A DNA stretch of 64,000 nucleotides from an uncultured Rickettsiales bacterium (GCA_964445765.1 CAYULD010000001.1:516537-580536); one strand, 5' to 3'; positions 2,937-64,000 are shown, numbered from the stretch's first letter. The notes: generated by a model not told the origin, from the sequence alone. A program made the numbers and translations.

Positions 2937-3053
2937 GTCTGGCAGCGACTTACTTTCCCATGACTTAAGACATAGTATCATCAGCGTGTGAGGTCTTAAC
3001 TTCTGAGTTCGGGATGGGATCAGGTGTGTCCCCTCAGCTATAACCACCAGACA
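2937..3053 (-). rRNA. rrf: 5S ribosomal RNA
   Basis: The reverse complement reads TGTCTGGTGGTTATAGCTGAGGGGACACACCTGATCCCATCCCGAACTCAGAAGTTAAG...CGCTGCCAGACT. This is collinear with bacterial 5S (CCGAACTCAGAAGTGAAAC core) and the terminal helix pairs. Confidence 0.9.
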
Positions 3054-3186
3054 AAGAAAAGGTTTATATTGTAAAAAGGTAAAGAATAATAACTCAAAAA
3101 AATATAGTAAGCAATATTAAAACAATGTTCTAAACGAAAGCTTAGCACTGCTTTAGTGTCATCGCAACTCTTATAAAATCGTTAAG

Positions 3187-5989
<2,803 letters not shown>

Positions 5990-9878: not shown

Positions 9879-10265
9879 TTATATGGCTTCTGCAAGAGAA
9901 GAATAGAGTTCAATTTCTTCTTCAGCAAGTAATTTCTCTAAATCATTTTGAGAGTGTTTTAAGCGTATTTTTGCGTGCTCTAACTTATCAACTGCAAATT
10001 CTTTTGTTGTATTAGAAAGATCAAAAGCCTCACTAGCAAGAACTGAGCATTCTGCTTGATTAACTTCTGCAAAGCCACCGGCTACAAAAAATTTTTTTAC
10101 TGAATTATTACCCTCAATAATACCAACAACGCCGTTTTTTAAGGTTGAAATAAGCGGTGCGTGATCAGCTAAAACGCCAAATTCGCCAGCTTCACCCGGC
10201 AAAGTTGCCTGTGCAACCTCACCTGTATATATTAACTTTCCGGGGGTAGTAATTTCTAGTTTCAT
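9879..10265 (-). CDS. atpC: F1 ATP synthase subunit epsilon
   Basis: 128-aa ORF downstream of atpD. The N-terminal beta-sandwich pattern (LEITTPGKLIYTGEVAQATLPGEAGEFGVLADHAPLIS) is typical of epsilon. Confidence 0.9.
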   Translation of the reverse strand: MKLEITTPGKLIYTGEVAQATLPGEAGEFGVLADHAPLISTLKNGVVGIIEGNNSVKKFFVAGGFAEVNQAECSVLASEAFDLSNTTKEFAVDKLEHAKIRLKHSQNDLEKLLAEEEIELYSSLAEAI

Positions 10266-10267
10266 AA

Positions 10268-10360
10268 TAGGTTCTAGGGTTTAGGTTTCTGGGGGGGTAG
10301 GATAAGAGATTTTAGTCAGAGATACTCCCCTAACACCTAATCCCTAGACCCTAACCCCTT
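10268..10360. repeat. Heptad-array palindromic element (atpD|atpC spacer)
   Basis: The left arm is TAGGTTC TAGGGTT TAGGTTT... and the right arm is CCCCTAA CACCTAA TCCCTAG ACCCTAA CCCCTTA. The arms are inverted and imperfect, and the element fills the whole spacer. Confidence 0.7.
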
Positions 10361-10363
10361 AAA

Positions 10364-11797
<1,434 letters not shown>

Positions 11798-11798
11798 T

Positions 11799-11890
11799 TA
11801 GGTTCTAGGTGCTAGGTTCTAGGTGTTAGGGGTTTGCTTTTATAAAAATAAAAACACCCTAAATCCTAGAACCTAGCACCTAGCACCTAA
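11799..11890. repeat. Heptad-array palindromic element (atpG|atpD spacer)
   Basis: Five TAGGKKY heptads (11799-11833), a 21-nt AT loop, then five inverse heptads (11855-11890). The arms are complementary at 30 of 35 positions, and the last unit contains the atpG TAG stop. Confidence 0.8.
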
Positions 11891-12792
11891 AGTGCTTCCG
11901 CCCCTGAAATAATTTCAATCAGCTCTTTAGTAATATTCGCTTGGCGGGTGCGGTTATATTGCAAACTTAATTTATTAATCATCTCACCAGCGTTTTTAGT
12001 GGCGTTGTCCATAGCAGTCATTCTTGCACCTTGCTCAGAAGCCGAATTTTCAAGAAGAGAAGTAAATATTTGAACTGAAATATTTTTAGGTAAAAGCGTT
12101 TTCAAGATAGATTCTTCATCAGGCTCATATTCATAAACTGATTTAGAATTATCTTTATTATTATCATTGGCTTCTACTTCAGAAAGTTGCGACGGTATAA
12201 GTGACTTTGGCGTTACAATTTGCACCAAAGGATTAACAAATTTTGAATAAATAATTTCCGCTGAGTCAATTTCACCCTTTTCAAATAAATCTATAACAAT
12301 TTTGCCAATTTCATCTGCTTCAGAAAATTCAGTTTGCTTGCCTTTCATTGCATTAACAGAAAAAATTATATCCCTGCTGTAAAGAGATTTAAGAACATCC
12401 CTAGCCTTTTTGCCAATAGTAATAATTTTAACTTGCTTACCTTGTGATTTTAATTTCTCAATTTTTGCTTTACTTGCCTTAATTAAGGAGCCGTTAAAAT
12501 TGCCACATAAGCCCCTATCTGAGCTTGTAACTATAAGCAAGATTTTCTCATTTATAACATTACCTTCTTTATCAATTATTCCTTTTAGAATTTCTGGCAA
12601 TTCATTTTCTTGCATTGAGCCTGCAAGGTTAGATATTATTTGTTGAATTTTTCTTGCATAAGGCCTTGTATCTTCCGCACGCTCTTGCATTCTGCGGAGT
12701 TTTGAAGCCGCAACCATTTTCATCGCTTTAGTAATCTTGCGAGTATTTTTAACTGAACCGATACGATTTTTTAAGGCTTTTAAACTAGGCAT
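11887..12792 (-). CDS. atpG: F1 ATP synthase subunit gamma
   Basis: N-terminus is MPSLKALKNRIGSVKNTRKITKAMKMVAASKLRR and C-terminus is NRTRQANITKELIEIISGAEAL. Confidence 0.95.
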   Translation of the reverse strand: MPSLKALKNRIGSVKNTRKITKAMKMVAASKLRRMQERAEDTRPYARKIQQIISNLAGSMQENELPEILKGIIDKEGNVINEKILLIVTSSDRGLCGNFNGSLIKASKAKIEKLKSQGKQVKIITIGKKARDVLKSLYSRDIIFSVNAMKGKQTEFSEADEIGKIVIDLFEKGEIDSAEIIYSKFVNPLVQIVTPKSLIPSQLSEVEANDNNKDNSKSVYEYEPDEESILKTLLPKNISVQIFTSLLENSASEQGARMTAMDNATKNAGEMINKLSLQYNRTRQANITKELIEIISGAEAL

Positions 12793-12811
12793 AAAAATTA
12801 TATTAAGATAA

Positions 12812-12839
12812 CTAGATTACTTGATAACTGGATTACTAG
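12812..12839. repeat. Left 28-bp inverted repeat of the four-helix-bundle cassette
   Basis: CTAGATTACTTGATAACTGGATTACTAG matches the reverse complement of 13215-13242 at 23 of 28 positions (core GATAACTGGAT). Confidence 0.65.
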
Positions 12840-13218
12840 AATTTAAGTTTTCAATTAGCCTACTCATCATTTTTGATATTTTTAAATAATCATTTTTAAA
12901 TTTAACATGTTCACCTTGATTTAAATAACCAAGATCAAAACAGAAATCTAACCAAAGTTCCGTTTCCTTTGCAGAAGCTATAGATATTGTAAAATATCTT
13001 CTAAATTCAGCTTTGGAAAATCTTTGCTTTGCAAAACCCTCCACAATATTAGCACAAATACCCTTTGAAGACCTTCTTAACTGAGAAGCAATCTCATACT
13101 GCTCAGCTTTAGGGAATTTTTGAGTTATTTTGTGTAATTCTAAAGCAGAGGAATAAGAAAGTTTGTAAATTTCTAAGTCCTGTGCCTCTTTTACAAATAC
13201 CCCATAACTAAATTCCAG
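12817..13218 (-). CDS. Four-helix-bundle protein (23S rRNA intervening-sequence protein / Avd-like family); no canonical start codon
   Basis: The track ORF (GTG at 13044) starts mid-domain. The frame stays open upstream to 13218, giving LEFSYGVFVKEAQDLEIYKLSYSSALELHKITQKFPKAEQYEIASQLRRSSKGICANIVEGFAKQRFSKAEFRRYFTISIASAKETELWLDFCFDLGYL... This matches the family over its full length, but there is no in-frame ATG/GTG/TTG before 13044 (only CTG at 13216-13218 and ATT codons). Confidence 0.6.
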   Translation of the reverse strand: MEFSYGVFVKEAQDLEIYKLSYSSALELHKITQKFPKAEQYEIASQLRRSSKGICANIVEGFAKQRFSKAEFRRYFTISIASAKETELWLDFCFDLGYLNQGEHVKFKNDYLKISKMMSRLIENLNSSNPVIK

Positions 13219-13242
13219 TCATCCAGTTATCCAATCATCTAG
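13215..13242. repeat. Right 28-bp inverted repeat of the four-helix-bundle cassette
   Basis: CCAGTCATCCAGTTATCCAATCATCTAG is the inverted partner of 12812-12839. Confidence 0.65.
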
Positions 13243-13259
13243 TAATCTGCTATCACTGA

Positions 13260-16975: not shown

Positions 16976-17140
16976 TAGTATTTCAAAAATATAATGTCTC
17001 CAAAATCACCACTCCAGTTTTATAAGGGGAGAGGCTGAAAGATAAATTCTTTCAGGGTGAGGGGATCGGGTTTATTAAGCCCTCACCCCAGCCCTCTCCC
17101 AGAGGGAGAGGGGGAATATCAATAAATTTTTGAAATACTA
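16976..17140. mobile_element. MITE-like structured repeat with perfect 15-bp terminal inverted repeats
   Basis: TIRs are TAGTATTTCAAAAAT (16976-16990) and ATTTTTGAAATACTA (17126-17140). The interior holds three GC-rich hairpins (CTGAAAG/CTTTCAG, GGGTGAGGG/CCCTCACCC, CCCTCTCCC-AGA-GGGAGAGGG) with no coding capacity. Confidence 0.6.
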
Positions 17141-17202
17141 AAGCAGCTAATTGTAAGAAGTTAGAATAAATAAAAACTACCATACTAACTACTAACTACC
17201 TT

Positions 17203-19032
17203 CTAACCCACTTCACCAACTTTTTTACCACCTAGATAACCTTGTAAAGCCTTACTAACCCTAGCATCAGCAAAATCAGTTGCGGTTTTATCTAGCTTAG
17301 CAATTAAGGAGTGAATTAATTCTCTATCTTCACCATCACAAGCAAGTTGCAATTCCTTAATACAATTTTCAATAGTGATTTTGTAATTTTTTTCAATTAA
17401 ATTTTCATCTTCACTTAACGCAGATTTAATTGTTTTTATAACTATATCCGCTTCAATCTTTGCTTCTAGAAGCAGCCTTTCAAATATATCCCTCTCAGCA
17501 TCCATAATACTTGCGAGGAGCATCTTTTCCATTTCCTCATAATTTAAGCCGTAAGATGGGCGAACTTCAATTTCAGCTTTGGTGCCGGTTTTTTCTTCAA
17601 TCGCTGAAACGCTAAGAATACCATCTGCATCTAATGCAAAAGTTACCTCAATAACGGCAGTGCCAGCTGGTTGTGGTGGAATATTTTTAAGATCAAAACA
17701 AGCAAGGCTTCTGCAATTTTTAGCAAGCTCCCTTTCACCTTGCAGAATATGAATTTTCATTGCGGTTTGACCATCTTCATAAGTGGTAAATTTCTGCTTT
17801 ACCCTTGCTGGAATTGGCGTATTTCTTGAAATTAAAACCTCCATTAAACCGCCATAAGTTTCAAGCCCTAGTGAAAGTGGCGTTACATCAAGCAATAAAG
17901 AATTTGAACCTTTAGTTAATGCTTCAGCTTGAATTGCCGCCCCAAGTGCCACTACTTGATCAGGGTTAATATCAGTTAATGGTTTTTTACCAGAGAGCTT
18001 TTCAACCTCTTTCTGGACAAGTGGAATTCTTGTAGAGCCACCAACCATAATAACGCCATCTAACTCAGCAGGTTTAATTCTAGCATCTTTAAGCACTGAT
18101 GAAAAAATAGAGATGGTTTTATCAATAATTGGCTTAATTATTTCTTCAAATTTAGTGCGAGTTATTTCAATTTTATTATTATCAATTTCTAAAATTGTTT
18201 TATCGCTTAGTGATAAATCTTCCTTAGCTTTTTTGAGAATATTTTTTAATTGTTGATTATTAATTGTAATATTTTTAGAATTATTCTTAACCATTTCAAC
18301 TAAAGCTAAATCAATATCATCACCACCTAAATGAGTATCACCACCAGTTGCGATAACTCTAAAAACACCCATTTGCATTTGCAAAATTGAGACATCAAAA
18401 GTGCCACCACCAAAATCATAAACCGCATAAAGCCCCTCAGATTGTTTATCTAAACCGTAAGCAAGAGCGGCGGCGGTTGGCTCATTAATAAGCCTCAAAA
18501 CTTCAAGCCCTGCGAGCTTTGCAGCATCTTTAGTTGCCTGCCTTTGTGCATCATTAAAATATGCGGGAACTGTTATAACTGCTTTATGAATATGCCTGCC
18601 AAGCACTTCATCAGCGTGATTTTTAACCGCTTTTAGAATTTCAGACGAAGCAGAAATTGGGTTAAATATTTTATCACCAAGCCTAAAATTTATAATTTTA
18701 TCTGAGGTTTCTTGAACAATTTCAATTCCATAAGCACTAAGATTTTCATCTGCCACATCTTGAATAGATTTTCCAATCAGCCTTTTAATAGAAGAAACAG
18801 ATTTTATGGTTGAAGAAGTTTTTTCACCAATATTTATAATATTTCTTTCATTTATATTTATAACCGAAGGTATAATAAAACTGCCATATTTATCGCATAT
18901 AACACTTGGCTTTTCATCAGATGAAATGGCAGCTAGAGAATTTGTAGTTCCCAGATCAATCCCGATTGCAATCCCCATTTCATTTTCGTGAGGTAACGGC
19001 GTTTGACCCGGTTCATGTATTTGTATTAACAT
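17203..19032 (-). CDS. hscA: Fe-S cluster assembly chaperone HscA (Hsp70 family)
   Basis: Contains IHEPG...[21 protein letters not shown] and VGGSTRIP. Confidence 0.95.
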
Positions 19033-19048
19033 TTTTTTGTAATAATTT

Positions 19049-19102
19049 TGTCATCTTGAGCAAAGCGAAAGATCTAGATTCTTCGCTTTGCTCAGAATGA
19101 CA
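19049..19102. repeat. TGTCAT...ATGACA palindromic element (hscB|hscA spacer)
   Basis: TGTCATCTTGAGCAAAGCGAAAGATCTAGATTCTTCGCTTTGCTCAGAATGACA is a near-perfect hairpin centred on AGATCTAGAT. Confidence 0.8.
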
Positions 19103-19129
19103 ACAAAGCAAATTGCAAATGGCTAACTA

Positions 19130-19612
19130 CTAACCACTAAATACTACCTTGGTTAAATACCTCAATCTAGTAACTTGCATTGAAGCGTTCTCATAGTCTG
19201 ATTTTTCAAAAAACTCTACAAAAGATTTCTTACTTTCTTCAATTTTATTTTCAACCTCTTGAAAGATTTTCTCTTTCTCTTTTTCATCCGCATCAAAAAG
19301 TTTTTCCCTAATTTCTATTTGTTCTAAAAGCAAATTTTGAGAGGGCTTAAAGCTATTATTAACCTCTTTATTAACTCTAAAACCTTTTAATTCAAGCAGA
19401 TGTTCTGCCCTTAATAAATCATCATTAAGCACTTTATAAGCCTCATTAATATCAGCACTAATTTTTACAGATTTAATTTTTTCATCTTCAGAAGAATTTA
19501 TAAATTTATCTGGGTGAAATTTTGCCTGAAGCTCCAAATATTTTTTATAAAGAGATTTTTTATCAAGGTTATAATTTTCATTCAGAGAAAATATTTGAAA
19601 GTAGTTGAGCAT
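19130..19612 (-). CDS. hscB: Fe-S cluster co-chaperone HscB (J-domain)
   Basis: J-domain with HPD (YLELQAKFHPDKF), positioned between iscA and hscA. Confidence 0.85.
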   Translation of the reverse strand: MLNYFQIFSLNENYNLDKKSLYKKYLELQAKFHPDKFINSSEDEKIKSVKISADINEAYKVLNDDLLRAEHLLELKGFRVNKEVNNSFKPSQNLLLEQIEIREKLFDADEKEKEKIFQEVENKIEESKKSFVEFFEKSDYENASMQVTRLRYLTKVVFSG

Positions 19613-19636
19613 ACTTAAATTTTAAATAACACTTAT

Positions 19637-19738
19637 TGTCATTACCCGAATTTTTGAAGTTCTAGACTTCAAAAATTATAGGGTAATCTAGAAATTTGGA
19701 TCGCCCTATAGTTTCCCTTGGAAACTCGGGCGATGACA
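19637..19738. repeat. Composite double-hairpin element bounded by TGTCAT/ATGACA
   Basis: Hairpin 1 is ATTACCCGAATTTTTGAAGT-TCTAGA-CTTCAAAAATTATAGGGTAAT. Hairpin 2 is CGCCCTATAGTTTCC-CTTG-GGAAACTCGGGCG. Termini are TGTCAT (19637) and ATGACA (19738). Confidence 0.7.
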
Positions 19739-19750
19739 GACATATTTACA

Positions 19751-20430: not shown

Positions 20431-20763
20431 CTAAACATGGAAACTTTCACCGCAACCGCATTTGCCCTTTTCGTTAGGGTTGATGAATACAAACCCTGAT
20501 TTCATTTTTTCTTCAACATAATCCATTTGCGTGCCGATTAAATATAAAACCGCTTTTGGATCAATAATAACTTTAACGCCTTTATCTTCAACAACATCTT
20601 CAAATTTCTTAACATCATCAGCATATTCAACAACATATGCAAGCCCTGAGCAACCACCTTTACGAACACCAACACGAATACCTTCAGATTGCTTGCCCCT
20701 AGCCTCAAGCAAGTTCTTGATTCTATTTGCAGCATTTTCTGTAATTGTAATAGGTGCTTTCAT
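20431..20763 (-). CDS. iscA: Fe-S cluster insertion protein IscA (HesB family)
   Basis: Contains GGCSGLAY and the C-terminal CGCGESF. Confidence 0.9.
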   Translation of the reverse strand: MKAPITITENAANRIKNLLEARGKQSEGIRVGVRKGGCSGLAYVVEYADDVKKFEDVVEDKGVKVIIDPKAVLYLIGTQMDYVEEKMKSGFVFINPNEKGKCGCGESFHV

Positions 20764-20764
20764 A

Positions 20765-20872
20765 TTAGGTTTTAGGGGTTAGGTGTTAGGTGTTAGGTGC
20801 TAAGAATTAAAGAAAAATAGAAAAAAATTACTAAACCTTCCTAGAACCTAGCTCCTAGAACCTAGAACCTTA
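20765..20872. repeat. Heptad-array palindromic element (iscU|iscA spacer)
   Basis: The left arm is TAGGTTT TAGGGGT TAGGTGT TAGGTGT TAGGTGC. An A-rich loop follows, then the right arm CTAGAAC CTAGCTC CTAGAAC CTAGAAC. Confidence 0.75.
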
Positions 20873-20873
20873 A

Positions 20874-21257
20874 TTAATTCTCCTGTTTCTTTTTATAATC
20901 CTCAATGGCACTTTTTATTGCATCTTCAGCAAGCATTGAGCAGTGAATTTTAACTGGTGGCAAAGATAATTCTTGAGCAATTTGTGTATTTTTGATGGTG
21001 TAAGCATCATCAAGGCTTTTACCTTTTATCCATTCAGTTGCAAGTGATGAAGAAGCTATCGCAGAGCCACATCCAAAGGTTTTGAATTTAGCATCTCTAA
21101 TTACGCCGCTATCATCAACTTCAATTTGAAGTTTCATCACATCACCACAAGCTGGTGCACCAACTAAGCCAGTGCCAACATTTTTGCTATTTTCATCCAT
21201 ACGCCCAACATTTCTTGGGTTTTCGTAGTGATCAATTACTTTTTCGCCGTAAGCCAT
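20874..21257 (-). CDS. iscU: Fe-S cluster assembly scaffold IscU
   Basis: Contains GAPACGDVMKLQI, FKTFGCGSAIASSS and HCSMLAEDAI. Confidence 0.93.
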   Translation of the reverse strand: MAYGEKVIDHYENPRNVGRMDENSKNVGTGLVGAPACGDVMKLQIEVDDSGVIRDAKFKTFGCGSAIASSSLATEWIKGKSLDDAYTIKNTQIAQELSLPPVKIHCSMLAEDAIKSAIEDYKKKQEN

Positions 21258-21288: not shown

Positions 21289-21414
21289 TGCCATTTCGCA
21301 CGAAGTGAGAAATCTGGTTGAAATATATTCTTTCTAGATTTCTCGCTTCGCTCAAAATGACACTAGTGGATACTCCTATAATTTTTTCTTACTGAAAAAA
21401 TTCGGGGTATGACA
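21289..21414. repeat. Two abutting palindromic elements upstream of iscU
   Basis: 21289-21362 (TGCCATTTCGCACGAAGTGAGAAATCT...AGATTTCTCGCTTCGCTCAAAATGACA) is a diverged member of the 19049 family. 21365-21414 (...CCTATAATTTTTTCTTACTGAAAAAATTCGGGGTATGACA) is an inverted homologue of hairpin 1 of the 19637 element. Confidence 0.65.
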
Positions 21415-46424: not shown

Positions 46425-46976
46425 TTATAAAACATCAAGCCTTAGGCTTGATTTTGTGTTAGGTAAAATTTCTTGCTCACGCAGATAAACTTTTTTTAGC
46501 TCTGTAATATTTATTCCTATTTTATCTCTAATTTCAGATAATTTTGCTTTGTTATATTTTTCAAAAGGAAATTCATAAATCTTTTCAACTTTTGATTTTT
46601 TGCCATATTCCAAACCTAAATCATAAGCCTTCATATGCCTACGAGAAAAACGATATTTTTTTGGATATAAATACATTGAAGCGGTTTTGAAAATAAACTC
46701 CTCATATTTTTTAATATCTTTGGAAGTTCCCATTGTGAAGCCAATTACAAAGGCTTCATCTTGTGGTAATAAACCTCTGCCTAAAACTATGTGAATACAA
46801 TCATGTCGCTCAAGATTTACAGCACCTTTTAACGCCAGTGGTGATTTTGGATTTTCAAATAATTTAACAATTTTACTTATATCCTCTGGGCTATTTGCAG
46901 GCAGAGTTTTTCTAACTTCTTCAAGTGTTTTATCACCATTATCTAGCTTTGGGTTCCAATCTCTATAGCTTATCAT
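46425..46976 (-). CDS. Coq4-like protein (HDxxH-x11-E motif)
   Basis: RHDCIHIVLGRGLLPQDEAFVIGF fits the Coq4-family metal motif HDxxH(x11)E. Otherwise unassigned. Confidence 0.45.
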   Translation of the reverse strand: MISYRDWNPKLDNGDKTLEEVRKTLPANSPEDISKIVKLFENPKSPLALKGAVNLERHDCIHIVLGRGLLPQDEAFVIGFTMGTSKDIKKYEEFIFKTASMYLYPKKYRFSRRHMKAYDLGLEYGKKSKVEKIYEFPFEKYNKAKLSEIRDKIGINITELKKVYLREQEILPNTKSSLRLDVL

Positions 46977-46983
46977 ATATGTC

Positions 46984-47053
46984 AGGGGTTAGTTATTAGG
47001 GGTTGGGGGTTTGGATTAAATGACGCAAGTGGTTAGTGGCACTAACCCCTAAC
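46984..47053. repeat. Degenerate heptad/hairpin element overlapping the 3' end of the ABC ATPase gene
   Basis: GGGGTTAGTTATTAGGGGTTGGGGGTTTGG...GTTAGTGGCACTAACCCCTAACC. The right part forms GTTAGTG-GC-CACTAAC and provides the last codons and TAG stop (47042-47044) of the ABC gene. Confidence 0.55.
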
Positions 47054-47965
47054 CAATGTTCTAAAAATATCTTCTAAGTTAGATTCCTCAGTTTTTATAT
47101 CTTTTATTTCTAAACCTAATTGATGAATTTGATTAATTATTTTTTCTAATTCCAACTCACTTTTTTGATAAGTAATAGAAATTGCATTACCATTATTTGT
47201 AATCTCAAAACCTTCTGGAAGTGAAGAATTTTCAACTTTATTAGCTAAATAAAAAATTATTTTTTTTACACCCAATTTTTCTTTTAGATTTTTGGTTGTG
47301 TCATTTGCAATAATTTCACCTTTATTAATCACCGCAATTTTATCGCAGAGTTGCTCTGCCTCTTCAAGATAATGCGTGGTTAATAAAATTGTTGTGCCTT
47401 CTTTGTTTAGTTTGCGAACATATTCCCAAAGCTGGCTTCTAAGTTCAACATCAACGCCGGCGGTTGGCTCATCTAAAATAATTATTGGTGGGTTATGAAC
47501 TAACGCTTTTGCAATTAAAAGCCTTCTTTTCATACCGCCTGAAAGCCTGCGAGGGTTGAAATCTTTTTTATCTTCAAGTGATAATGCTTTTAGAATTTCA
47601 TCAGTTCTTCTATTTCCTTTGCGAATTCCATAATATCCAGCGTAATATTCTAGCGTATCATAAACATTAAAAAAAGGGTCAATAACCACTTCTTGTGGCA
47701 CTATACCTAAATTAGCACGAAGTTTTTCAGGCTCTTTATCAAGGTCAATATTATTAACAAAAACCTTGCCAGAGGTTTTATTAACAAGACCCGCAATAAT
47801 ATTTATTAGCGTTGATTTGCCAGCACCATTAGGGCCAAGCAGACCAAAAATCTGCCCCTTTTCAATGTTTAATGAAATATTTTTTAAGGCTTCCTTTCTC
47901 TCCTTAGAGAATTTAGAAGTATAAGTTTTTCTTAAATCTGAAATTGATATTGCAAAATTATTCAT
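47042..47965 (-). CDS. ABC transporter ATP-binding protein (ABC-2/drug-exporter type), no adjacent permease
   Basis: Walker A is GLLGPNGAGKST, signature is LSGGMKRRL, Walker B is IIILDEPTAGVD. Confidence 0.9.
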   Translation of the reverse strand: MNNFAISISDLRKTYTSKFSKERKEALKNISLNIEKGQIFGLLGPNGAGKSTLINIIAGLVNKTSGKVFVNNIDLDKEPEKLRANLGIVPQEVVIDPFFNVYDTLEYYAGYYGIRKGNRRTDEILKALSLEDKKDFNPRRLSGGMKRRLLIAKALVHNPPIIILDEPTAGVDVELRSQLWEYVRKLNKEGTTILLTTHYLEEAEQLCDKIAVINKGEIIANDTTKNLKEKLGVKKIIFYLANKVENSSLPEGFEITNNGNAISITYQKSELELEKIINQIHQLGLEIKDIKTEESNLEDIFRTLVRG

Positions 47966-48369: not shown

Positions 48370-49707
48370 TTATTCTAAAAGATAATTATAAGTTCTAAAA
48401 TATTCATCTATGGCAGAAACTATTGAAGAAACAACTTTTTGTTTATGTTGAGCGGTTGCAAGCAACCTTTCTTCGTAAATATTGCTCATATAACCAAGTT
48501 CCAGTAATACTGATGGTATATCCGCACCTGTAAGCACCGCAAGGCTTGCCTCCCTATTAGATTTTGGCAGAGGTTTTGCTTTTTTACCCAAATTTTTTGC
48601 TAGAATTTTTGAAAGCTCATCTGAAATATCTTTCGTTTCGTTTTGTGAAATAAATATTAACGCCTCTTTCACATCCCTTGATTTTCCTTTCAGTGGAACA
48701 CCCCTTATAATTTCTTCATATTCAGATTTTTCTAGAAGTTTTCTTGCTTCTCTTTCAGCCCTATCTTTTGAGATTGTATAAATTGAAAAGCCCCTTACTT
48801 CTTTATTAGGGTTAGAATCTGCGTGAATAGAGATAAGAATATCCCCACCACTTCTGCGAGCAATTTTTACCCTGTCAGGAAGTGGCACAAAATTATCATT
48901 ATCTCTAGTCATTTTTACAATAAACTTTCCGGTTTTATTAAGCTCATCTCTTAATGCACGGCTATAGGCTAATACGATATTCTTTTCTTTATTTCCGAGC
49001 TTTCCAATGGCGCCGGGGTCTTTACCACCATGACCGGGATCAATCACAACCACTGCCTTCCTAGTTTTTTTAATTACTGGCTTAGTTGGAAGTGCTGAAA
49101 GGGTTATTCTATCTGCAATTTGAGGGGTAATAATTTTTTGTGGTGTAATTTTCGCAGGCGGAGTTGCAGTAATATTTTGCTGAATAATATCTGGCTTTGC
49201 TTGCTTAATATTTGAAAAACTTTCAAGCGGAACATTATGTTTGTTAATAATATCAAATACGGTTTTTCCTTCTGGATTTGAATTATTACTTATGCTTTCT
49301 TGCTGAATTTGAATATTAGTTTTTGGCTTTACTCTATCAATAATTTCCTCAGTTTTTTTGACATAATTTTGAACTCTAATTTGAGCTTTTTCTTCAACTT
49401 GTCTGTAAATTGGAAGCAAACTTGTAGGAGCAGGCAAGGATAATTTTTTTAACGCATCACTATTTATAGTTGGAGCCTTATAAACTTCCTGCTTTTTTGG
49501 CAAAACCTCTTTCACCAGAGATTTTGGAGGGTTTTTCTGAGGTTTAATTTTCTTTATAATTTTTGTTTCAACCCCTGTTTTACCAACCTCAAAAGGTGCT
49601 TTATCTTTATAGCTTTGAGTTTGTGATTGAGGCTTATTTTCTGAGGCAGAAATATAGCCAAAATTAAAAATTATAAATAAACAAAATATTTTTAATAATA
49701 ATTTCAT
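48370..49707 (-). CDS. N-acetylmuramoyl-L-alanine amidase (Amidase_3) with long Pro/Lys/Gln-rich N-terminal region
   Basis: Signal peptide; catalytic region VVVIDPGHGGKDPGA...SIHADS...ELGYMSN. Confidence 0.85.
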   Translation of the reverse strand: MKLLLKIFCLFIIFNFGYISASENKPQSQTQSYKDKAPFEVGKTGVETKIIKKIKPQKNPPKSLVKEVLPKKQEVYKAPTINSDALKKLSLPAPTSLLPIYRQVEEKAQIRVQNYVKKTEEIIDRVKPKTNIQIQQESISNNSNPEGKTVFDIINKHNVPLESFSNIKQAKPDIIQQNITATPPAKITPQKIITPQIADRITLSALPTKPVIKKTRKAVVVIDPGHGGKDPGAIGKLGNKEKNIVLAYSRALRDELNKTGKFIVKMTRDNDNFVPLPDRVKIARRSGGDILISIHADSNPNKEVRGFSIYTISKDRAEREARKLLEKSEYEEIIRGVPLKGKSRDVKEALIFISQNETKDISDELSKILAKNLGKKAKPLPKSNREASLAVLTGADIPSVLLELGYMSNIYEERLLATAQHKQKVVSSIVSAIDEYFRTYNYLLE

Positions 49708-57079: not shown

Positions 57080-60000
57080 TTAGCTAAAAATTAGTATATC
57101 GTTTCCAAGTTTAGCAATCAACTCTGCTTCACTTACACCTTGGAAGGTCATTGATGAGTGATCGTCAACAACACCATTTCCATTTAAGTCTATTGCAAGA
57201 ACTGCATTACCATTTGCGTCTTGTGATATAATTGAGTTAGATTGCAATTTAGCAAGAGTATCAATAGCTTGACCATTAATGTTCAAGTTTTGAATCTCAA
57301 TTTTATCATCACCTTGTCCAAAATCTGTGATTATATCATCACCAGTTGCACCATTAGCAAAGTTAAATCTGAAAGTATCATTACCAAAATTTACCATATT
57401 GCCAACGCCTTGCGAATCAAGTGCATCTTGAAGAGCAGTAACGCTATTTATATCACCAGTAATGAAATATTCTTGACCATTAACAGTGAACTTATAAACA
57501 TCACCAGTTAGCATATCATTCTCTTTGCCACCTTCAATAATGTCATTGCCAAAGTTAAACTCATTATTATTGAGCCACATATCGTCATCATTAACAGATG
57601 CACCATCTCCTTGAGTAACATTTGTACCGTTACTATACTCAATAGCAATTTCTTTAGCATCACCGATAACGTGGTCATCACCTTTACCACCTTGGAGTAA
57701 ATCATTACCAAAGTTTAGAATGTTATTTTCAAACTTAACATTCGCACTTGCAGTTGCAATACCAGCTGAACATCCATCATCAACGATTGCAGTTGCATCA
57801 CCCTGCTGACCTTTAATAAGAAGCTTATTAACGTCACCAAGTGTTAAGTCATCACCATTACCTGCATTAACTTCGTCATTACCAAAAATAATTTCACCAT
57901 TAGACATTATAGCATCTGTATTTGCTTCCGCAAATTCATCGCCACCAAAAGTTACAGGGTTTGCTTTAGCATAAGCATTGCCAGATTTCACTGATAATGT
58001 TAGATCTTTAACATCACCAGAAACGATATTATCATCTTCATTTCCATTAACAATATCATCTTCATAATCTTTATTTGGCGTAACAGTTTCTGATGTACTA
58101 GAAACTTCCTCAGGATCATTTTCTGTTTCATCTTCAGTAACAAGCGTAATGCTATCATCATTAGGGTTGTTAGGGTTACCTGATGGATCACCAACTGTTG
58201 TAGTGTTATCATCTGGGTTATCTGAAACAACTAGCGTTACAGTTGCTGAATCTTCCTCACCACCCATACCACCATTTGGTGAATCTGTCGCTATATAATC
58301 AAATTCAACATTTGCTGTTTGGTTTGGCTCTAGTTTGAAGAATTCAGAATCAAATGAGATAGTTTTATTATCTGCAGCTACAACCAAGAATAATGGTAAT
58401 AAATTTCCAGCTATCATCACATCACCATTTTGCTGAACAGTCAAGCCTGTAGCATTATGAATACTTGGTGAAAGCCTGTTAATAGCATTTGGCCCCTTAA
58501 TTGTAATGCTTGTAATCGAGCCATTTTTAATAAATAACTCACCACCATCTGGGTCATTATCATTAGCAAGAACTTGAATAGTAGTAATTTTATTTTCAAA
58601 AATTGGAATATTATCATCAACCGCATTAATATCTCGGCCGACTATAATATTATTAGCAAGTGCAATATTACTTACATCTTTACCATCTGAAGCTTTATAT
58701 CTTAGCTGAATATTTATAGCTTGATCTGCTTGTAAATATTGGAATTGAGACTTATCAAAACTATATTCACCTGTATTCTGATTCAATGTAACATCAAACA
58801 CTTTACCAGCGTGAATACCAGCATTTGCACCAAATGTAACTTTATATAATGCAACCACCGCATTAACAGGCTGACCGTTTGTAGAATTTGTTCCACCACC
58901 TCCACCAACTAATTCAACAGTTACATCAACACCATCATAGCTGTGTATTCCAGTTTCAATAGAGTAAGTTAGCGGATCATTATCAGCATCGGTAGCTTGT
59001 AACTTGAATGTTAAGCTATTTGCTTGTGCCGTATCATTCTCATCAGTAAACGAATTACCATTCCAAGTTCCCACAATTGAACTGGTAATTGCATCTTCAT
59101 CTTCTACATTTGTAGTATCTTGAGCAACTGGTTTATTATTATTGTTAGTATCTTCTTTAATATTAATGGTTACCATACCAGAATCTTGCTCACCAAGATT
59201 ATTTGGATTATCACCATCAATTTTATAGTCAAAAGTGATAGTTGTTACTGGTAAGTTAGGTTGTAATTCAACATCACCATTTGTTTTTACAACTGCAACT
59301 AAACTTGCTCCATTATATAATTCAAAACCGTTATTTGTATTAACAACTGTTAGATCTACCGCCCCAAGCTTAGGGTTACTAACTTCAATTATCTCTAATG
59401 GGTGATCATTATCATCATTAACATCATTAGAAACTATATTCCCAATATTGCCTGAATTTCCAACAATCACATCAATGTTGTCATCATTAGCCATAGGGTT
59501 ATCACCTAATATTCTAACCTTCATATTTGTTGAAATAGAAGATGAGCCATCAGATACTAATACTGGTATTGTTAAATCTGCAAATTCATCTTTTAGTAAA
59601 TATTGAACATCCGCTTTATCCACTGTGATATGCGGTTTTCCATTAATGAAACTGAATGTTAAATCAATTGGATGACCAGCAATTCCATTATAAGTTAATG
59701 TTTGTGGTATATTATTATTTGCAATGTTAACACCATTAATAGTATATTTTAATGCTGTTAATGCAGTATCAGGATCAGTAACTTTAATTTCAAATGCTAA
59801 AGTTTGGTTTAATCCGTCATCTTTATCTCCAACTAAACCACTATTATCTTTTGCATTTTCATCATCTACATAATCCATTGCACTGAAAACTGGAGGTTTT
59901 TTACCACCTGTGCAAAGACCACAAGGCTCAACAATAATAGTAACATTGGCACTATCTTGCTCACCAACTAAATCCCCATTATCTTTTCCATCAACGGTGT

Positions 60001-63000
60001 ATGAGAATGTGATTGTTCCTTGAGCACTACCATTATATGAAACCGTACCATCTTTAGCAACATTTGCTATAACAACACCATTCATTAATAAATTGAATGA
60101 GCCATTAGGAATTTTGACAGAAACAAGATCAATATTTCCATTAAACTTAGCATTTTCAACTTTAATTACCTCTAGAGCATCTCCGTCTGGATCAATATCA
60201 ACTCCATTTCCATTATCTCCAGTAATAATATTGCCAATTACACCAAAGCTTGTAGTTTTGATATTTAAAAGGTCATCAGTAGCATTTGGAATACCACCAT
60301 GAATTGAAATTAAGACTGTTCCGTTAGCTGAAACACCATTTACATCTGTAACAGTGTAGTCAATACTTATTGCTTCAATTTGACCTTGTGATAGCCACTG
60401 CAACTCTTCAGTTACTAAATTAATTGTTCCATCATTATTGTTAATTATGGAGTAAACCATACCATTAACTGTAACTGTAGCAGGAACAGTATAAGTAAGA
60501 GGGCCATTATTGCTAGATGCTGGAAGAACAAACTTTAATTCACCATTAACACCTATTGAATCATTTGGATTAACAGCTTTTAAGCCATCTTCATCATCAG
60601 CATATTTTGTAACACCAAATGGGGTTTCAGGACCAGAATAGAACTTAACAATTACCTCTGCAGTATCTTCTTCGCCTGAGCTATTCGGCTGATTTGGAAT
60701 TAAATTATTTGGCAACCCATCAACTTTATAAGTTAATTTAAGATCACCGCCCGGGCCACCATTCCTAGTTATCGTGCCATCTGCATTAACTGTAGCAACT
60801 AAATCATTGCCAAGTTTTAATTGATAAGCACCATTTACCAATTCAACTGCAAGTGCCTGACCAGCAATTGATGCGTTTGTAACTGAGATAATTTCTAAAG
60901 AATCACCATCTGGGTCATTGTCATTAGCTAGAATACTTGTGGTAGATTGACCAATTAAATATTCATTATTTGTGAAATTATCATCATTAGCAACAACACC
61001 CACACCATCAATTGTTATTGTGATATCACTCTCCGCACTTGCTCCACTCGGATCCTCAACCTGATAATCAAACTTGAATGTTACACTCTCATTCTCCTTC
61101 AAGTCTTGGAACTCAGCAGGGTCAAATACCGCATAACCTAAACCATTTATAACCTCTACACTTATTCCTATCGTCCTTGTTGTTCCATCAGGAAACACCA
61201 CTAACACTGATGCTGGCGCACTATATATCAACGGATCTCCATTAGGATCACTCGCAGGCAACAAGAATGCTAACTTACCTGCCCCCTGATTATCTCCATC
61301 ATCATTCGATACTCCTATTATTCCATCCTCATCATCCCTCACCTTCGTCACTCCCTTCTCTGGCACCTCAGGTGGATTGTTACCTCCATGTAAACATACA
61401 ACTACATTCGCACTCGCCTGCTCACCTAAACTCGTCGCAACACCAGGCAATGAATCAGCTGTATATGCAAATGTAAATTCATTAGCATTAAACACACCTA
61501 AATTCTTCAACTTACCATCCGCTTGCAATATCGCAAACTCCTTATTATCAAAGAAGAATGAAAATGTCCCATCAGGATTAGCAACAACTTGTGCTGCATT
61601 TCCATCTAAAAATGCATTTGTAACCGTGATCAACTGGTCAACCGCATCTCCATCTGCATCACTATCATTATCAAACACACTCTTAATTGATGTCTGACCC
61701 GCACCTATTATGTCGTTTGTCCAATTATCAAACAATGCCACAGGCGATACACCATCAATTGTTATTGTGATATCACTCTCCGCACTTGCTCCACTCGGAT
61801 CCTCAACCTGATAATCAAACTTGAATGTTACACTCTCATTCTCCTTCAAGTCTTGGAACTCAGCAGGGTCAAATACCGCATAACCTAAACCATTTATAAC
61901 CTCTACACTTATTCCTATCGTCCTTGTTGTTCCATCAGGAAACACCACTAACACTGATGCTGGCGCACTATATATCAACGGATCTCCATTAGGATCACTC
62001 GCAGGCAACAAGAATGCTAACTTACCTGCCCCCTGATTATCTCCATCATCATTCGATACTCCTATTATTCCATCCTCATCATCCCTCACCTTCGTCACTC
62101 CCTTCTCTGGCACCTCAGGTGGGTCATTAGGGTTATCATTGCTATTACCAACTATTCCTATTGTTGCTTTCGCATCCGCACTAGTTAAACCATTAGAATC
62201 TGTCACATTATACTTCAATACAAATTCTATCGCTTCTTTGTCATTTAAAAACTGCATATCTGCCGTTCTAAACGCAAACTCCTGACCTCCATTATGCACT
62301 AACTCAAACACCCTACCAGCATACGCTCCAGAAGTTATCTCATAAGAATAAACTCCAGCTACCGCTGTCGGCGACACCGTAACATCCATTCCATCAACAA
62401 TATAAGAACCAGTAACTATCTTATATACCACAGGAATATTATTCGTTACTACATCACTAAACTTAAACCTTAAATCTGTAAGATCATTATTTATATCCTC
62501 ATTCTTATCTGCATATTGCGTGCCTCCAGGCGTTACACCAACTATCCCTCCTGTATCTATATCATCCTCATCATCCGCCACCACTATATTATCATTCAAT
62601 ATTACCGGCGGATTACCCTTATCATTGCTATTACCAACTATTCCTATTGTTGCTTTCGCATCCGCACTAGTTAAACCATTAGAATCTGTCACATTATACT
62701 TCAATACAAATTCTATCGCTTCTTTGTCATTTAAAAACTGCATATCTGCCGTTCTAAACGCAAACTCCTGACCTCCATTATGCACTAACTCAAACACCCT
62801 ACCAGCATACGCTCCAGAAGTTATCTCATAAGAATAAACTCCAGCTACCGCTGTCGGCGACACCGTAACATCCATTCCATCAACAATATAAGAACCAGTA
62901 ACTATCTTATATACCACAGGAATATTATTCGTTACTACATCACTAAACTTAAACCTTAAATCTGTAAGATCATTATTTATATCCTCATTCTTATCTGCAT

Positions 63001-64000
63001 ATTGCGTGCCTCCAGGCGTTACACCAACTATCCCTCCTGTATCTATATCATCCTCATCATCCGCCACCACTATATTATCATTCAATATTACCGGCGGATT
63101 ACCAAATCCACAATTAATTGTAACTTCTGCAATATCTTGCTCACCATTATCAGCCAAACCATTCAAGAATTGATTAGGATTATTATTAATATCTTTTGAA
63201 CCATCACTTATATAGCTAAATTTAACTTGCCCCGGTATTGCTCCATTATAAGTAACTACGCCAGTTTCACCATTAATTTCTATTGTCATACCATTTCCTG
63301 TTAGTGTAAAAATATTTACACCATTAACAATAGTAGTATTAACTGTCAAATTAATTGGGGCACCACTTACTACGGTTCCATTATTGTTAACTTGAGGAAT
63401 GAATACAGCGTTAATAACTTCCCTAACATCTACATCATCACCGTCTGTATCAGTGTCATTTATAAGAATATTGCCAACTATTTGTGCTTGACCATTTGCA
63501 ATAGCATTAAGGTTATCATCAAGAGCAGTAACTGAAGTTCCAACAATATACATATTTGCGTCAACAGATTTACTCAATTTACCACCTTGTAAAATCGCTG
63601 CATATTTTAAGCCAAACTTAAATACTTCATCTGCTTTTAATGCTTGTAGCTCAGATTCAACAAGGGTAATTGTTGCATTTTGTGCATCAAAAATAATTGT
63701 GAATTCTTTTCCTTCAAGAGGCTTGAACTGATTTCCTTGAGGAACAGATTCAAGCTTATACTTAAATTGATTAGCTGGTGAGCCCACAGGCTGATATAAT
63801 CTTACTTCAATTCCATCAACAAAGTAAGTTGGATTTCCAGCAACTAATGTGTAACCCTGAACCGGAATGGAAGCATTACCCTTATCAAGTTGGAACATTA
63901 GAGTATTTGGGTTAACCTGAGAAGCATCTTGATCAACATAAGTTAAACCATTTCCATAATATACACCAGATGGTGGGTTTGCATTTCCAGCGTTTAATAT
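57080..64000 (-). CDS. Giant repetitive Ca-binding adhesin-like protein (VCBS/cadherin-like modules plus C-terminal RTX-like repeats); N-terminus outside window
   Basis: The frame stays open upstream of the M at 63898 to the window edge (...ILNAGNANPPSGVYYGNGLTYVDQDASQVNPNTL-MFQLDKG). Repeated ~100-aa modules carry NDxDxDGD motifs (LINDTDTDGDDV, FDNDSDADGDAV, LANDNDPDGDSL, LANDNDPDGGEL). The C-terminus has GNDxxxGGxGxD-type repeats (GNDEVNAGNGDDLTLGD, GNDLLQGGKGDDHVIGD, GNDIIEGGKENDMLTGD). Confidence 0.85.
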   Translation of the reverse strand: MLNAGNANPPSGVYYGNGLTYVDQDASQVNPNTLMFQLDKGNASIPVQGYTLVAGNPTYFVDGIEVRLYQPVGSPANQFKYKLESVPQGNQFKPLEGKEFTIIFDAQNATITLVESELQALKADEVFKFGLKYAAILQGGKLSKSVDANMYIVGTSVTALDDNLNAIANGQAQIVGNILINDTDTDGDDVDVREVINAVFIPQVNNNGTVVSGAPINLTVNTTIVNGVNIFTLTGNGMTIEINGETGVVTYNGAIPGQVKFSYISDGSKDINNNPNQFLNGLADNGEQDIAEVTINCGFGNPPVILNDNIVVADDEDDIDTGGIVGVTPGGTQYADKNEDINNDLTDLRFKFSDVVTNNIPVVYKIVTGSYIVDGMDVTVSPTAVAGVYSYEITSGAYAGRVFELVHNGGQEFAFRTADMQFLNDKEAIEFVLKYNVTDSNGLTSADAKATIGIVGNSNDKGNPPVILNDNIVVADDEDDIDTGGIVGVTPGGTQYADKNEDINNDLTDLRFKFSDVVTNNIPVVYKIVTGSYIVDGMDVTVSPTAVAGVYSYEITSGAYAGRVFELVHNGGQEFAFRTADMQFLNDKEAIEFVLKYNVTDSNGLTSADAKATIGIVGNSNDNPNDPPEVPEKGVTKVRDDEDGIIGVSNDDGDNQGAGKLAFLLPASDPNGDPLIYSAPASVLVVFPDGTTRTIGISVEVINGLGYAVFDPAEFQDLKENESVTFKFDYQVEDPSGASAESDITITIDGVSPVALFDNWTNDIIGAGQTSIKSVFDNDSDADGDAVDQLITVTNAFLDGNAAQVVANPDGTFSFFFDNKEFAILQADGKLKNLGVFNANEFTFAYTADSLPGVATSLGEQASANVVVCLHGGNNPPEVPEKGVTKVRDDEDGIIGVSNDDGDNQGAGKLAFLLPASDPNGDPLIYSAPASVLVVFPDGTTRTIGISVEVINGLGYAVFDPAEFQDLKENESVTFKFDYQVEDPSGASAESDITITIDGVGVVANDDNFTNNEYLIGQSTTSILANDNDPDGDSLEIISVTNASIAGQALAVELVNGAYQLKLGNDLVATVNADGTITRNGGPGGDLKLTYKVDGLPNNLIPNQPNSSGEEDTAEVIVKFYSGPETPFGVTKYADDEDGLKAVNPNDSIGVNGELKFVLPASSNNGPLTYTVPATVTVNGMVYSIINNNDGTINLVTEELQWLSQGQIEAISIDYTVTDVNGVSANGTVLISIHGGIPNATDDLLNIKTTSFGVIGNIITGDNGNGVDIDPDGDALEVIKVENAKFNGNIDLVSVKIPNGSFNLLMNGVVIANVAKDGTVSYNGSAQGTITFSYTVDGKDNGDLVGEQDSANVTIIVEPCGLCTGGKKPPVFSAMDYVDDENAKDNSGLVGDKDDGLNQTLAFEIKVTDPDTALTALKYTINGVNIANNNIPQTLTYNGIAGHPIDLTFSFINGKPHITVDKADVQYLLKDEFADLTIPVLVSDGSSSISTNMKVRILGDNPMANDDNIDVIVGNSGNIGNIVSNDVNDDNDHPLEIIEVSNPKLGAVDLTVVNTNNGFELYNGASLVAVVKTNGDVELQPNLPVTTITFDYKIDGDNPNNLGEQDSGMVTINIKEDTNNNNKPVAQDTTNVEDEDAITSSIVGTWNGNSFTDENDTAQANSLTFKLQATDADNDPLTYSIETGIHSYDGVDVTVELVGGGGGTNSTNGQPVNAVVALYKVTFGANAGIHAGKVFDVTLNQNTGEYSFDKSQFQYLQADQAINIQLRYKASDGKDVSNIALANNIIVGRDINAVDDNIPIFENKITTIQVLANDNDPDGGELFIKNGSITSITIKGPNAINRLSPSIHNATGLTVQQNGDVMIAGNLLPLFLVVAADNKTISFDSEFFKLEPNQTANVEFDYIATDSPNGGMGGEEDSATVTLVVSDNPDDNTTTVGDPSGNPNNPNDDSITLVTEDETENDPEEVSSTSETVTPNKDYEDDIVNGNEDDNIVSGDVKDLTLSVKSGNAYAKANPVTFGGDEFAEANTDAIMSNGEIIFGNDEVNAGNGDDLTLGDVNKLLIKGQQGDATAIVDDGCSAGIATASANVKFENNILNFGNDLLQGGKGDDHVIGDAKEIAIEYSNGTNVTQGDGASVNDDDMWLNNNEFNFGNDIIEGGKENDMLTGDVYKFTVNGQEYFITGDINSVTALQDALDSQGVGNMVNFGNDTFRFNFANGATGDDIITDFGQGDDKIEIQNLNINGQAIDTLAKLQSNSIISQDANGNAVLAIDLNGNGVVDDHSSMTFQGVSEAELIAKLGNDILIFS
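61002..61375. repeat. 374-bp perfect direct repeat, copy 1 (adhesin gene)
   Basis: Identical by eye to 61749-62122. It encodes PPEVPEKGVTKVRDDEDG...ESDITITIDGV. The copies are 747 bp (249 codons) apart. Confidence 0.85.
61749..62122. repeat. 374-bp perfect direct repeat, copy 2 (adhesin gene)
   Basis: Identical by eye to 61002-61375. Confidence 0.85.
62133..63103. repeat. Perfect tandem duplication, 2 x 485 bp at a 486-bp period (162 aa), inside the adhesin gene
   Basis: 62133-62617 and 62619-63103 read identically base for base by eye. The unit encodes GNPPVILNDNIVVADDEDDIDTGG...ATIGIVGNSNDK. Confidence 0.85.

Follow-up and report, generated by a model that had tools for sequence, protein, structure and literature searches.

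Facing arrays of TAGG heptamers between atpG and atpD of an uncultured Rickettsiales-like bacterium: a member of a widespread kind of intercistronic hairpin

What is the long hairpin that fills the spacer between the ATP synthase genes atpG and atpD in a 64,000-nt contig stretch of an uncultured Rickettsiales bacterium (GCA_964445765.1, CAYULD010000001.1:516537-580536; the whole stretch is called the window and positions are counted from its first letter), and what may it do there? The element, located at 11797-11891, consists of two inverted arrays of 7-nt units. It is no terminator, belongs to no consensus-based family of repeats, and adds to a known, functionally unexplained kind of repeat. 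The explanation that we favour, with moderate confidence, is that it represents a member of the widespread convergent heptamer-array inverted repeats that carries no open reading frame (ORF), was gained at the atpG-atpD junction in this lineage only and acts in the manner of an rRNA intervening sequence (IVS), as a co-transcribed stem that is processed by RNase III or bars exonucleases and is perhaps near neutral for the cell. Going by the sequence, the host was treated as an uncultured, AT-rich Rickettsiales-like alphaproteobacterium; the G+C content of the window ranges between 31 and 38%, and its AtpD is 81-83% identical to proteins from metagenome-assembled genomes of Rickettsiales and other alphaproteobacteria.

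Direct reading of the plus strand gives TAGGTTC TAGGTGC TAGGTTC TAGGTGT TAGGGGT at 11799-11833 and CACCCTAA ATCCTAG AACCTAG CACCTAG CACCTAA at 11855-11890, five heptads each with a 21-nt A/T loop between the arrays, and agrees in sequence and coordinates with an earlier, sequence-only reading of 11799-11890. That reading had counted 30 of 35 complementary arm positions; the strong complementarity holds and is slightly better in a repeat search, which paired 11797-11831 with 11857-11891 (35 nt each, 32/35 or 91% complementary, 25 nt between) as the longest inverted repeat of the window. Over 11797-11891 the design is TAGGNNN in one arm and NNNCCTA in the other, with 5+5 units, and Tandem Repeats Finder reported period 7 in both arms with 3.6-4.6 copies per arm. 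The strong stem that had been postulated for this spacer was recovered by RNA folding: the minus (transcribed) strand folds at -61.2 kcal/mol against -24.7 +/- 3.2 kcal/mol for dinucleotide shuffles (z = -11.6), and the plus strand reaches z = -10.2. Searches of Rfam returned zero matches at the gathering threshold; when E-value cut-offs were applied instead, the sole matches were sub-threshold ones to microRNA-precursor models, which amount to generic long hairpins.

The gene assignments on both sides proved correct, and both genes lie on the minus strand, which the earlier reading had not stated: atpG (F1 gamma, PF00231, 11887-12792) is the upstream and atpD (F1 beta, 10364-11785) the downstream gene. 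The order on this strand is atpH-atpA-atpG-atpD-atpC, with an insert between atpA and atpG. The element is thereby placed between co-directional genes and overlaps the atpG stop codon (11887-11889), which is the TAG of the outermost heptad. According to sequence, fold and repeat search, the 5' arm on the transcript (11857-11891, minus strand) runs UUUAGGUGC UAGGUGC UAGGUUC UAGGAUU UAGGG, its first unit holding that stop codon, and the 3' arm (11797-11831, minus strand) runs CCCUAA CACCUAG AACCUAG CACCUAG AACCUAAA and ends 14 nt ahead of the atpD ATG. Sequence and fold place between them an A/U-rich loop region (11832-11856, minus strand) with a small extra A-U helix in the minimum-free-energy structure, and after them, at 11783-11796 (minus strand), an unpaired A-rich leader (AAGUAAAAACU) with the atpD start codon (11783-11785). 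No Shine-Dalgarno motif was found in this leader. Either strand of the element contains at least three stop codons in each of the three frames, as had been claimed.

Arrays of this type are strongly enriched in the window. The pattern TAGGN3TAGGN3TAGG (at most one mismatch) matches 17 times against 0.16 expected, a number that none of 100 shuffles reached, so that the enrichment anticipated by the sequence-only reading was found on the scale of the window. All 17 matches are confined to three operon spacers, in each of which a TAGG array is followed by an inverted CCTA array, and CTAG is about 14 times denser within the elements than elsewhere in the window. One sister element fills the spacer between atpD and atpC (10266-10363, minus strand); its arrays are of the TTAGGGN type, contain GGG and GGGG runs, form an imperfect stem of -33 kcal/mol, and 2 nt separate the 3' array from the atpC ATG. 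A second fills the spacer between iscU and iscA (20764-20873, minus strand), where complementarity is limited to the TAGG/CCTA cores. A degenerate third (46970-47064, minus strand) lies between an ABC-ATPase gene and orf183, with its 5' units within the last ABC codons and C-rich heptads ahead of the next ATG. The sister elements span from the upstream stop codon to 2-3 nt short of the next ATG. The copies in the window share the TAGG/CCTA core only; the variable arm positions differ and the loops are unrelated, hence they are not copies of one master element.

Contigs of relatives were collected via AtpG homologues of 90%, 83%, 78% and about 65% identity. At the orthologous junction, the TAGG hairpin is absent in all relatives examined (contigs L048, L083, L084 and L087-L090), which indicates that the focal element was gained in this lineage. 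The atpG-atpD spacer of L084 and L089 measures 29-30 nt and contains AAGGAG, that of L083, L087 and L088 holds a small lipoprotein-like ORF, and that of L090 and L048 a PF05635 gene. The small ORF (L083 3019-3435, L087 10992-11348, L088 10734-11174 and L086 2969-3265), which the window lacks, encodes a lipoprotein-like signal sequence (MKK...LLSGC) and has no Pfam match. Scoring orthologous junctions, a check proposed earlier, gave a divided result, since arrays of the same architecture but other units occupy other atp spacers of these relatives: (ATCGTTN)6-loop-(NAACGAT)5 between atpA and atpG of L083 (z = -7.4), octads between atpD and atpC of L083 (z = -5.8), and (GAAGTTN)4 with its complement between atpD and atpC of L084 (z = -5.6). 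Their units are ATCGTTN, GATGNTTN and GAAGTTN, with z between -5.6 and -7.4. At the end of its atpG, L083 reads GCACTTTAGGAT, in which the stop context TTTAGG is already there; going by this comparison, a stop TAG followed by G is ancestral and the first unit of the focal array re-uses this context. Descent of the loop from the ancestral spacer was considered: the loop has a 9-nt match (AAAAGCAAA) to the L083 spacer, equalled in score by 49 of 1000 shuffles.

The architecture extends beyond close relatives. A unit-blind period-7 scan over 80 alphaproteobacterial atp loci revealed inverted heptad hairpins at the atpD-atpC junction of two Mesorhizobium species, four Bradyrhizobium species and several metagenome-assembled genomes, with z between -2.8 and -8.9; the rhizobial cases were judged by per-sequence z-scores because the tandem-unit register makes alignment ambiguous. 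The loci include L047, L053, L055, L057, L067, L070, L077, L003, L058, L083 and L084, with the hairpin at about 5410-5520 in most, and their units differ (GCGAATA/TATTCGC, CGGCAGT, TTAGTGC, GAAGTTN and others). In most other alphaproteobacterial taxa scanned, this junction is short or overlapping. The inverted-pair form is widespread, reaching Rickettsiales-like and rhizobial alphaproteobacteria, and recurs at junctions of the ATP synthase operon.

The TAGG design itself, searched as an exact pattern of three TAGG units, a gap of 12-42 nt and three CCTA units, was found in at least 120 metagenome contigs. Among the matches listed, the G+C content ranges from 0.34 to 0.70, and many use units of the focal type such as TAGGTTC, TAGGTGC and TAGGGGC. 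By crude ORF calling, the listed matches lie 48 times between co-directional, 18 times between convergent and 3 times between divergent genes. The arrays behave as a 3'-end or intercistronic RNA hairpin, unlike a promoter element, and about one third of the upstream ORFs of these matches end within the array at -3, -10 or -17 nt, i.e. at the first in-frame unit TAG in steps of 7 nt. At positions left unconstrained by the search pattern, arm complementarity of the listed matches was 0.57 within the same locus against 0.37 between different loci; within-locus complementarity is real, yet far from perfect. A TAGG-array scan of viral contigs yielded single arrays for the most part, along with some telomere repeats of the plant type, and the plain array pattern is hence not specific. 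Telomere repeats of the type (TTTAGGG)n were seen in metagenome contigs L237, L286, L292 and L295, there as head-to-head palindromes (TTTAGGG)n/(CCCTAAA)n, and in IMG/VR contigs L104, L113, L121 and L155; they probably come from eukaryotes or from the assembly and have no relation to the bacterial elements. The IMG/VR contig L116 (62% G+C) carries three ATAGGNN-type hairpins (z about -8) at 2955-3050, 3235-3345 and 5700-5790 between co-directional genes.

Among described repeats, the sequence-only reading had recognized no named family. This stands for REP/BIME, ERIC and RPE; it does not stand for convergent tandem heptamer arrays, to which the element belongs and which comprise the GGGAATC repeats of Xanthomonas, the cyanobacterial STRR and the related TAACTGA repeats. 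Xanthomonas genomes contain 70-75 convergent pairs of GGGAATC heptamers with the potential to form stem-loops; about 90% of the pairs are intergenic, mostly between co-directional genes and near the upstream ORF, their length and sequence vary among close relatives, and their function was given as unknown (Rehm et al. 2015, PMC4692102). Tandem 7-nt units in at least three copies, convergent arrays and the intergenic position by the upstream ORF between co-directional genes are common to both systems, whereas the focal unit is TAGGNNN, the host is Rickettsiales-like, and no link to PF05635 was reported for Xanthomonas (PMC4692102). The same study centres on G-quadruplexes and also treats the Nostoc GGGGA(C/T)T repeats (PMC4692102). 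The focal units (TAGGTTC, TAGGTGC) contain GG runs only and no G3 runs; the G-quadruplex principle does not apply to this element and was rejected as a general one. Tandem heptamer arrays are over-represented in many bacterial genomes, with origin and function open (PMC4692102; bioRxiv 10.1101/2022.06.06.494920), and the role of the Nostoc heptamer repeats was still regarded as unresolved in the 2022 preprint (bioRxiv 10.1101/2022.06.06.494920).

The STRR heptamers of heterocystous cyanobacteria, reportedly described by Mazel and colleagues in 1990, likewise occur as tandem heptamers in intergenic or intra-operon spacers, often in many copies. Known STRR units are CCCCAGT, TTGGTCA and CAACAGT, and stop codons are not required in them; phylum and unit sequences (these three and CAGGAGT) differ from the focal case. 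The TAACTGA heptamers of Beggiatoaceae, Cyanobacteria and Bacteroidetes form arrays just upstream of start codons and are argued to be restricted in their tolerated positions by forward-orientation stop codons (MacGregor 2015, PMC4679880). They share with the focal element the position few nucleotides before start codons in spacers devoid of a Shine-Dalgarno motif; in contrast, TAACTGA repeats are direct (1/170 inverted), have no predicted secondary structure and differ in unit.

A structural counterpart with a demonstrated fate is found in rRNA. The 23S IVS of Coxiella burnetii is bounded by 28-bp terminal inverted repeats, is cut mid-stem by RNase III, and contains a PF05635 (S23p) ORF; the tandem heptamers ahead of this ORF differ in number from strain to strain (Warrier et al. 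2016, PMC4990558). It has in common with the focal element a long stem from terminal inverted repeats, heptamers and the position in a transcribed, essential RNA; the focal loop (21-25 nt) lacks an ORF and lies in an mRNA spacer instead of a 23S helix (9, 25 or 45), and RNase III cleavage is demonstrated for rRNA IVSs only. All parts of the Coxiella IVS, including the PF05635 ORF, recur one spacer upstream in the window, at 12793-13259 (minus strand) between atpA and atpG. This cassette and its link to rRNA intervening sequences were missed by the sequence-only reading. Its ORF (12820-13218, stop 12817-12819) encodes a four-helix-bundle protein that matches PF05635 ('23S rRNA IVS protein') over the full profile (E = 5.9e-30) as well as TIGR02436, and stands between two inverted octad arrays (12806-12840 and 13214-13250) with a potential pairing of -43.8 kcal/mol. 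No ATG, GTG or TTG start was found for this ORF; there is a CTG after an in-frame TGA, and the +1 frame contains an ATG.

Bracketing of PF05635 genes by inverted arrays was observed in 14 of the 17 loci examined (five fetched loci and 9 of 12 plasmid genes). A local search of the fetched loci located PF05635 genes in the window, L020, L048, L090/L091, L163 and L218. In the window, L020, L048, L090 and L163, inverted heptad or octad arrays enclose the gene, with duplexes of -28 to -45 kcal/mol; the arms of L163 are of the TAGG type and its gene is antisense to the neighbours, and in L218 the gene adjoins a complete TAGG hairpin. An independent sample was drawn from PLSDB plasmids by tblastn (29 matches, mostly Nostocales and Azospirillum; 12 regions fetched). 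Heptamer-like arrays stand directly upstream of the start codon in 12 of 12 plasmid genes, and an inverted complement follows downstream in nine and partially in one, the arrays of the other two being direct. On pNPUN01 of Nostoc punctiforme, a pair without ORF (960-1089) and a PF05635-loaded pair (1555-2003) occupy neighbouring spacers and share the unit CAGGAGT; about 5 of the 43 genes in its first 50 kb adjoin arrays. Several cyanobacterial plasmid PF05635 genes lie between co-directional genes of operons unrelated to one another, CRISPR-cas operons among them, as in L333 (Pseudanabaena, cas6-cas4), L344 (Picosynechococcus, cas10-cmr3), L336 and L337. No paper stating a general association of PF05635 genes with flanking heptamer arrays was found in the literature searched, where the Coxiella IVS paper (PMC4990558) is the sole mention of heptamers beside S23p. 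The near-constant bracketing of PF05635 genes by arrays, together with the recurrent occupation of alphaproteobacterial atp junctions, is the most interesting lead and falls outside the focal coordinates.

We tentatively put forward that heptamer-array stems and PF05635 genes are two states of one cross-phylum 'IVS-like cassette' that settles in transcribed spacers, namely operon junctions, 3' ends of genes and rRNA helices, where processing removes its stem from the RNA and thereby makes the element tolerable; 11797-11891 would then be a solo stem, either landing pad or remnant. If so, STRR arrays, Xanthomonas heptamer pairs, rRNA intervening sequences and the alphaproteobacterial atp hairpins would be one phenomenon, and the PF05635 protein might act on the arrays.

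For the focal stem itself, the following sequence of events is proposed. At the DNA level, a 7-nt unit would have multiplied by replication slippage, as was proposed for heptamer repeats (Mrazek 2007, as cited in PMC4692102), and copying between the arms, e.g. by intrastrand template switching, may have kept them partly complementary. Because each unit contains TAG, any frame that enters the array would close within three units, and the array can therefore abut or even enter a gene end; at atpG, the native stop TAG would serve as the first unit. At the RNA level, the computed fold suggests that the element, presumably transcribed within the atpHAGDC message, forms a stem of about 40 bp, which in the absence of a U-tail would present itself as long double-stranded RNA and not as a terminator. 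As the same architecture is cut mid-stem in the Coxiella IVS, RNase III cleavage or a barrier against 3'-exonucleases is the most likely consequence, and the stem is probably such a structure. The operon mRNA would split into an atpHAG and an atpDC half, and the 14-nt A-rich leader would leave the atpD start codon free. At the atpD-atpC junction, a hairpin that shields the upstream segment or covers the start codon would raise beta relative to epsilon, in line with F1 stoichiometry. Arms shared with PF05635 genes tie the arrays to rRNA intervening sequences, for which the RNase III cut is demonstrated. Culturable carriers (Mesorhizobium, Bradyrhizobium, Nostoc and Azospirillum) make both this processing and a possible role of the uncharacterized, Avd-related PF05635 protein directly testable. 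If the elements cut or stabilize operon mRNAs, they would constitute a general, overlooked layer of control of operon expression; if they do not, they would clearly exemplify selfish sequence that is tolerated and has taken its shape from a filter of stop codons.

Several observations weigh against the processing of a co-transcribed stem. The sister elements fold poorly, with z = -0.7 (10260-10370), -2.0 (20758-20880) and -2.0 (46965-47070), and in the isc sister (20764-20873) complementarity at variable positions is 0.33. The related arrays that the sequence-only reading had listed at 10268-10360, 20765-20872 and 46984-47053 are thus present, but their pairing (z = -0.7 to -2.0) is much weaker than that of the focal stem. 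A perfect stem is not generally kept, which weakens any structure-based function, and this poor pairing is the chief argument against a structure-dependent role. It is not obvious how subunit stoichiometry would gain from RNase III cleavage at the atpG-atpD junction. The metagenome set was chosen by its TAGG cores and its ORFs were crudely called. Two of the 12 plasmid PF05635 genes carry direct arrays and a third has a partial inverted partner, and the arms of the window cassette are octads of another sequence, so that the link between empty and loaded elements rests on architecture and not on sequence homology.

An alternative is that the element is purely a mutational by-product, a selfish simple-sequence repeat in which slippage-prone heptamers expand where they are harmless and the hairpin has no role in RNA. 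We consider this rather unlikely, although the patchy presence at atpG-atpD among relatives, the unrelated units at orthologous junctions, the poorly paired sisters, the presence of several other palindrome families in the spacers of the same genome and the variable length and sequence of published heptamer arrays (PMC4692102; PMC4990558) all conform to it. It accounts less well for the recurrence of the architecture at atpD-atpC in alphaproteobacteria of distant families (at least 12 loci), for the consistently convergent arrangement with depletion of divergent, promoter-bearing spacers (3/69 among the metagenome matches listed), and for arm complementarity above the control. The latter points leave room for neutrality of the focal copy, and given its patchy presence and the lack of an evident benefit at this junction, this copy may be near neutral also under the processing explanation.

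More doubtful is the proposal that a protein, most plausibly the Avd-like PF05635 protein of the neighbouring cassette, uses the arrays as cis sites, and that hairpins without ORF would be non-autonomous partners of a mobile or self-regulating cassette. PF05635 is related to Avd, a nucleic-acid-binding accessory protein of diversity-generating retroelements (PMC10053308). This kinship, the array bracketing of most PF05635 genes (14/17), the conserved TAGG core next to three variable nucleotides and the placement of cassettes, which varies in junction among related genomes and includes sites between cas genes of cyanobacteria, would suit such a protein. Against it stand the unlike units of cassette (octads) and TAGG hairpins within the same window, the missing normal start codon of the window PF05635 ORF, the absence of reverse transcriptase and transposase genes from the window, and the report that the S23p protein of Coxiella is probably not made in vivo (PMC4990558).

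The sequence-only reading had also suggested an all-frame translational insulator, in which the TAGs would halt readthrough or frameshifted ribosomes; coupling might be added, with the stem bringing the atpG stop near the atpD start for re-initiation. The abundance of stops (at least three per frame on both strands), the position of a stop at the 5' base and of a start 2-14 nt from the 3' base of the stem in all three elements and the lack of a Shine-Dalgarno motif ahead of the downstream genes fit this scheme, which we nonetheless regard as improbable. The motif is nearly absent across all 41 ORFs of the window (exceptions are atpA, with AAGAGGTG, and 48370-49707), so that its absence is not specific to the hairpin junctions, and a function of the hairpin as Shine-Dalgarno substitute or driver of coupling was rejected on this ground. 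Relatives with 65-90% AtpG identity possess clear AAGGAG motifs in their atp operons. A single normal stop already ends translation, and the ATCGTTN and GATGNTTN elements of relatives and the CAGGAGT elements of pNPUN01 do not contain a stop in every unit. ORF ends at -3, -10 and -17 nt are better explained by a tolerance filter, as argued for the TAACTGA repeats (PMC4679880), and the TAG units would act as such a filter rather than as an insulator.

Insertion of a ready-made MITE or REP-type transposable element is very improbable. The element is an intergenic inverted repeat with several copies in the window and absent from the orthologous site of relatives, as such an insertion would be, and like the REP/BIME elements of enterobacteria it lies at a gene 3' end, between co-transcribed genes, and would form an mRNA hairpin. 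REP elements are imperfect palindromes of about 35 nt that have a GTAG head, conform to a family consensus and are mobilized by RAYT transposases; the focal type, by contrast, has a consensus limited to a 4-nt core and consists of tandem heptads. Loops of the copies are unrelated and their arms differ at variable positions, at variance also with a MITE; neither a target-site duplication or other flanking direct repeat nor a conserved GTAG head was found at the focal element, no transposase, RAYT or reverse transcriptase gene is present in the 64 kb of the window, and the first unit re-uses the ancestral stop context TTTAGG. RPE, the palindromic repeats of Rickettsiales genomes, measure 100-150 bp, have a conserved family consensus, are often inserted in frame into genes and are not heptad arrays. 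The Bradyrhizobium repeats Br-REP1 and Br-REP2 were also considered and are different palindromes. REPs act as barriers to 3'-exonucleases according to the summary in PMC5082802.

The least credible alternative, intrinsic termination or attenuation that would reduce read-through into atpD from atpG, of which the sequence-only reading had entertained attenuation, can invoke the long stable stem downstream of a stop codon and the frequency of the class at gene 3' ends, but neither strand has a T/U-run after the stem (the sense strand continues with AAAAAGTAAAAACT), a terminator scan of the window does not list the element, no promoter-like site was found between stem and atpD, and attenuation there would cut beta relative to gamma, opposite to the 3:1 ratio of beta to gamma in F1.

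Further repeats were noted in the isc region. Single heptad arrays without an inverted partner begin at the hscA stop codon (17183-17205, minus strand, TTAGTAG type) and overlap the last codons and the stop of hscB (19123-19146, minus strand, TAGTNNT type), the hscB frame closing at the first in-frame unit TAG of the latter. Besides the TAGG arrays, the isc operon spacers contain two further palindrome families. A second family of spacer palindromes, of the type TGTCATTCTGAGCAAAGCGAAGAATC...GATTCTTCGCTTTGCTCAGAATGACA, occurs at 19048-19103, 21289-21362 and 19613-19750, and related versions were seen in other Rickettsiales-like contigs (L086 365-440, L090 about 12915-12940, and L050). There is also a small G/C-rich hairpin, CCCTCTCCC...GGGAGAGGG with GGGGTGAGGG, at about 17040-17110 in the hscA-fdx spacer, which recurs in spacers of several related genomes (L086 about 2020-2045, L090 about 9935-9975, and L046); since it lies inside the inverted repeat 16976-16996/17120-17140, nested insertions are indicated.

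Elsewhere in the window, 23S and 5S rRNA genes (2937-5988) lack an adjoining 16S gene, an ORF on the plus strand beginning at 6423; unlinked rRNA genes are typical of Rickettsiales. The 23S gene (3187-5988) matches its model end to end. Near the other end of the window, an ORF of 2272 aa (57080-63898) with Ig/cadherin-like domains encloses a perfect 486-bp tandem duplication (62133-63103; 2.0 copies, 100% match).

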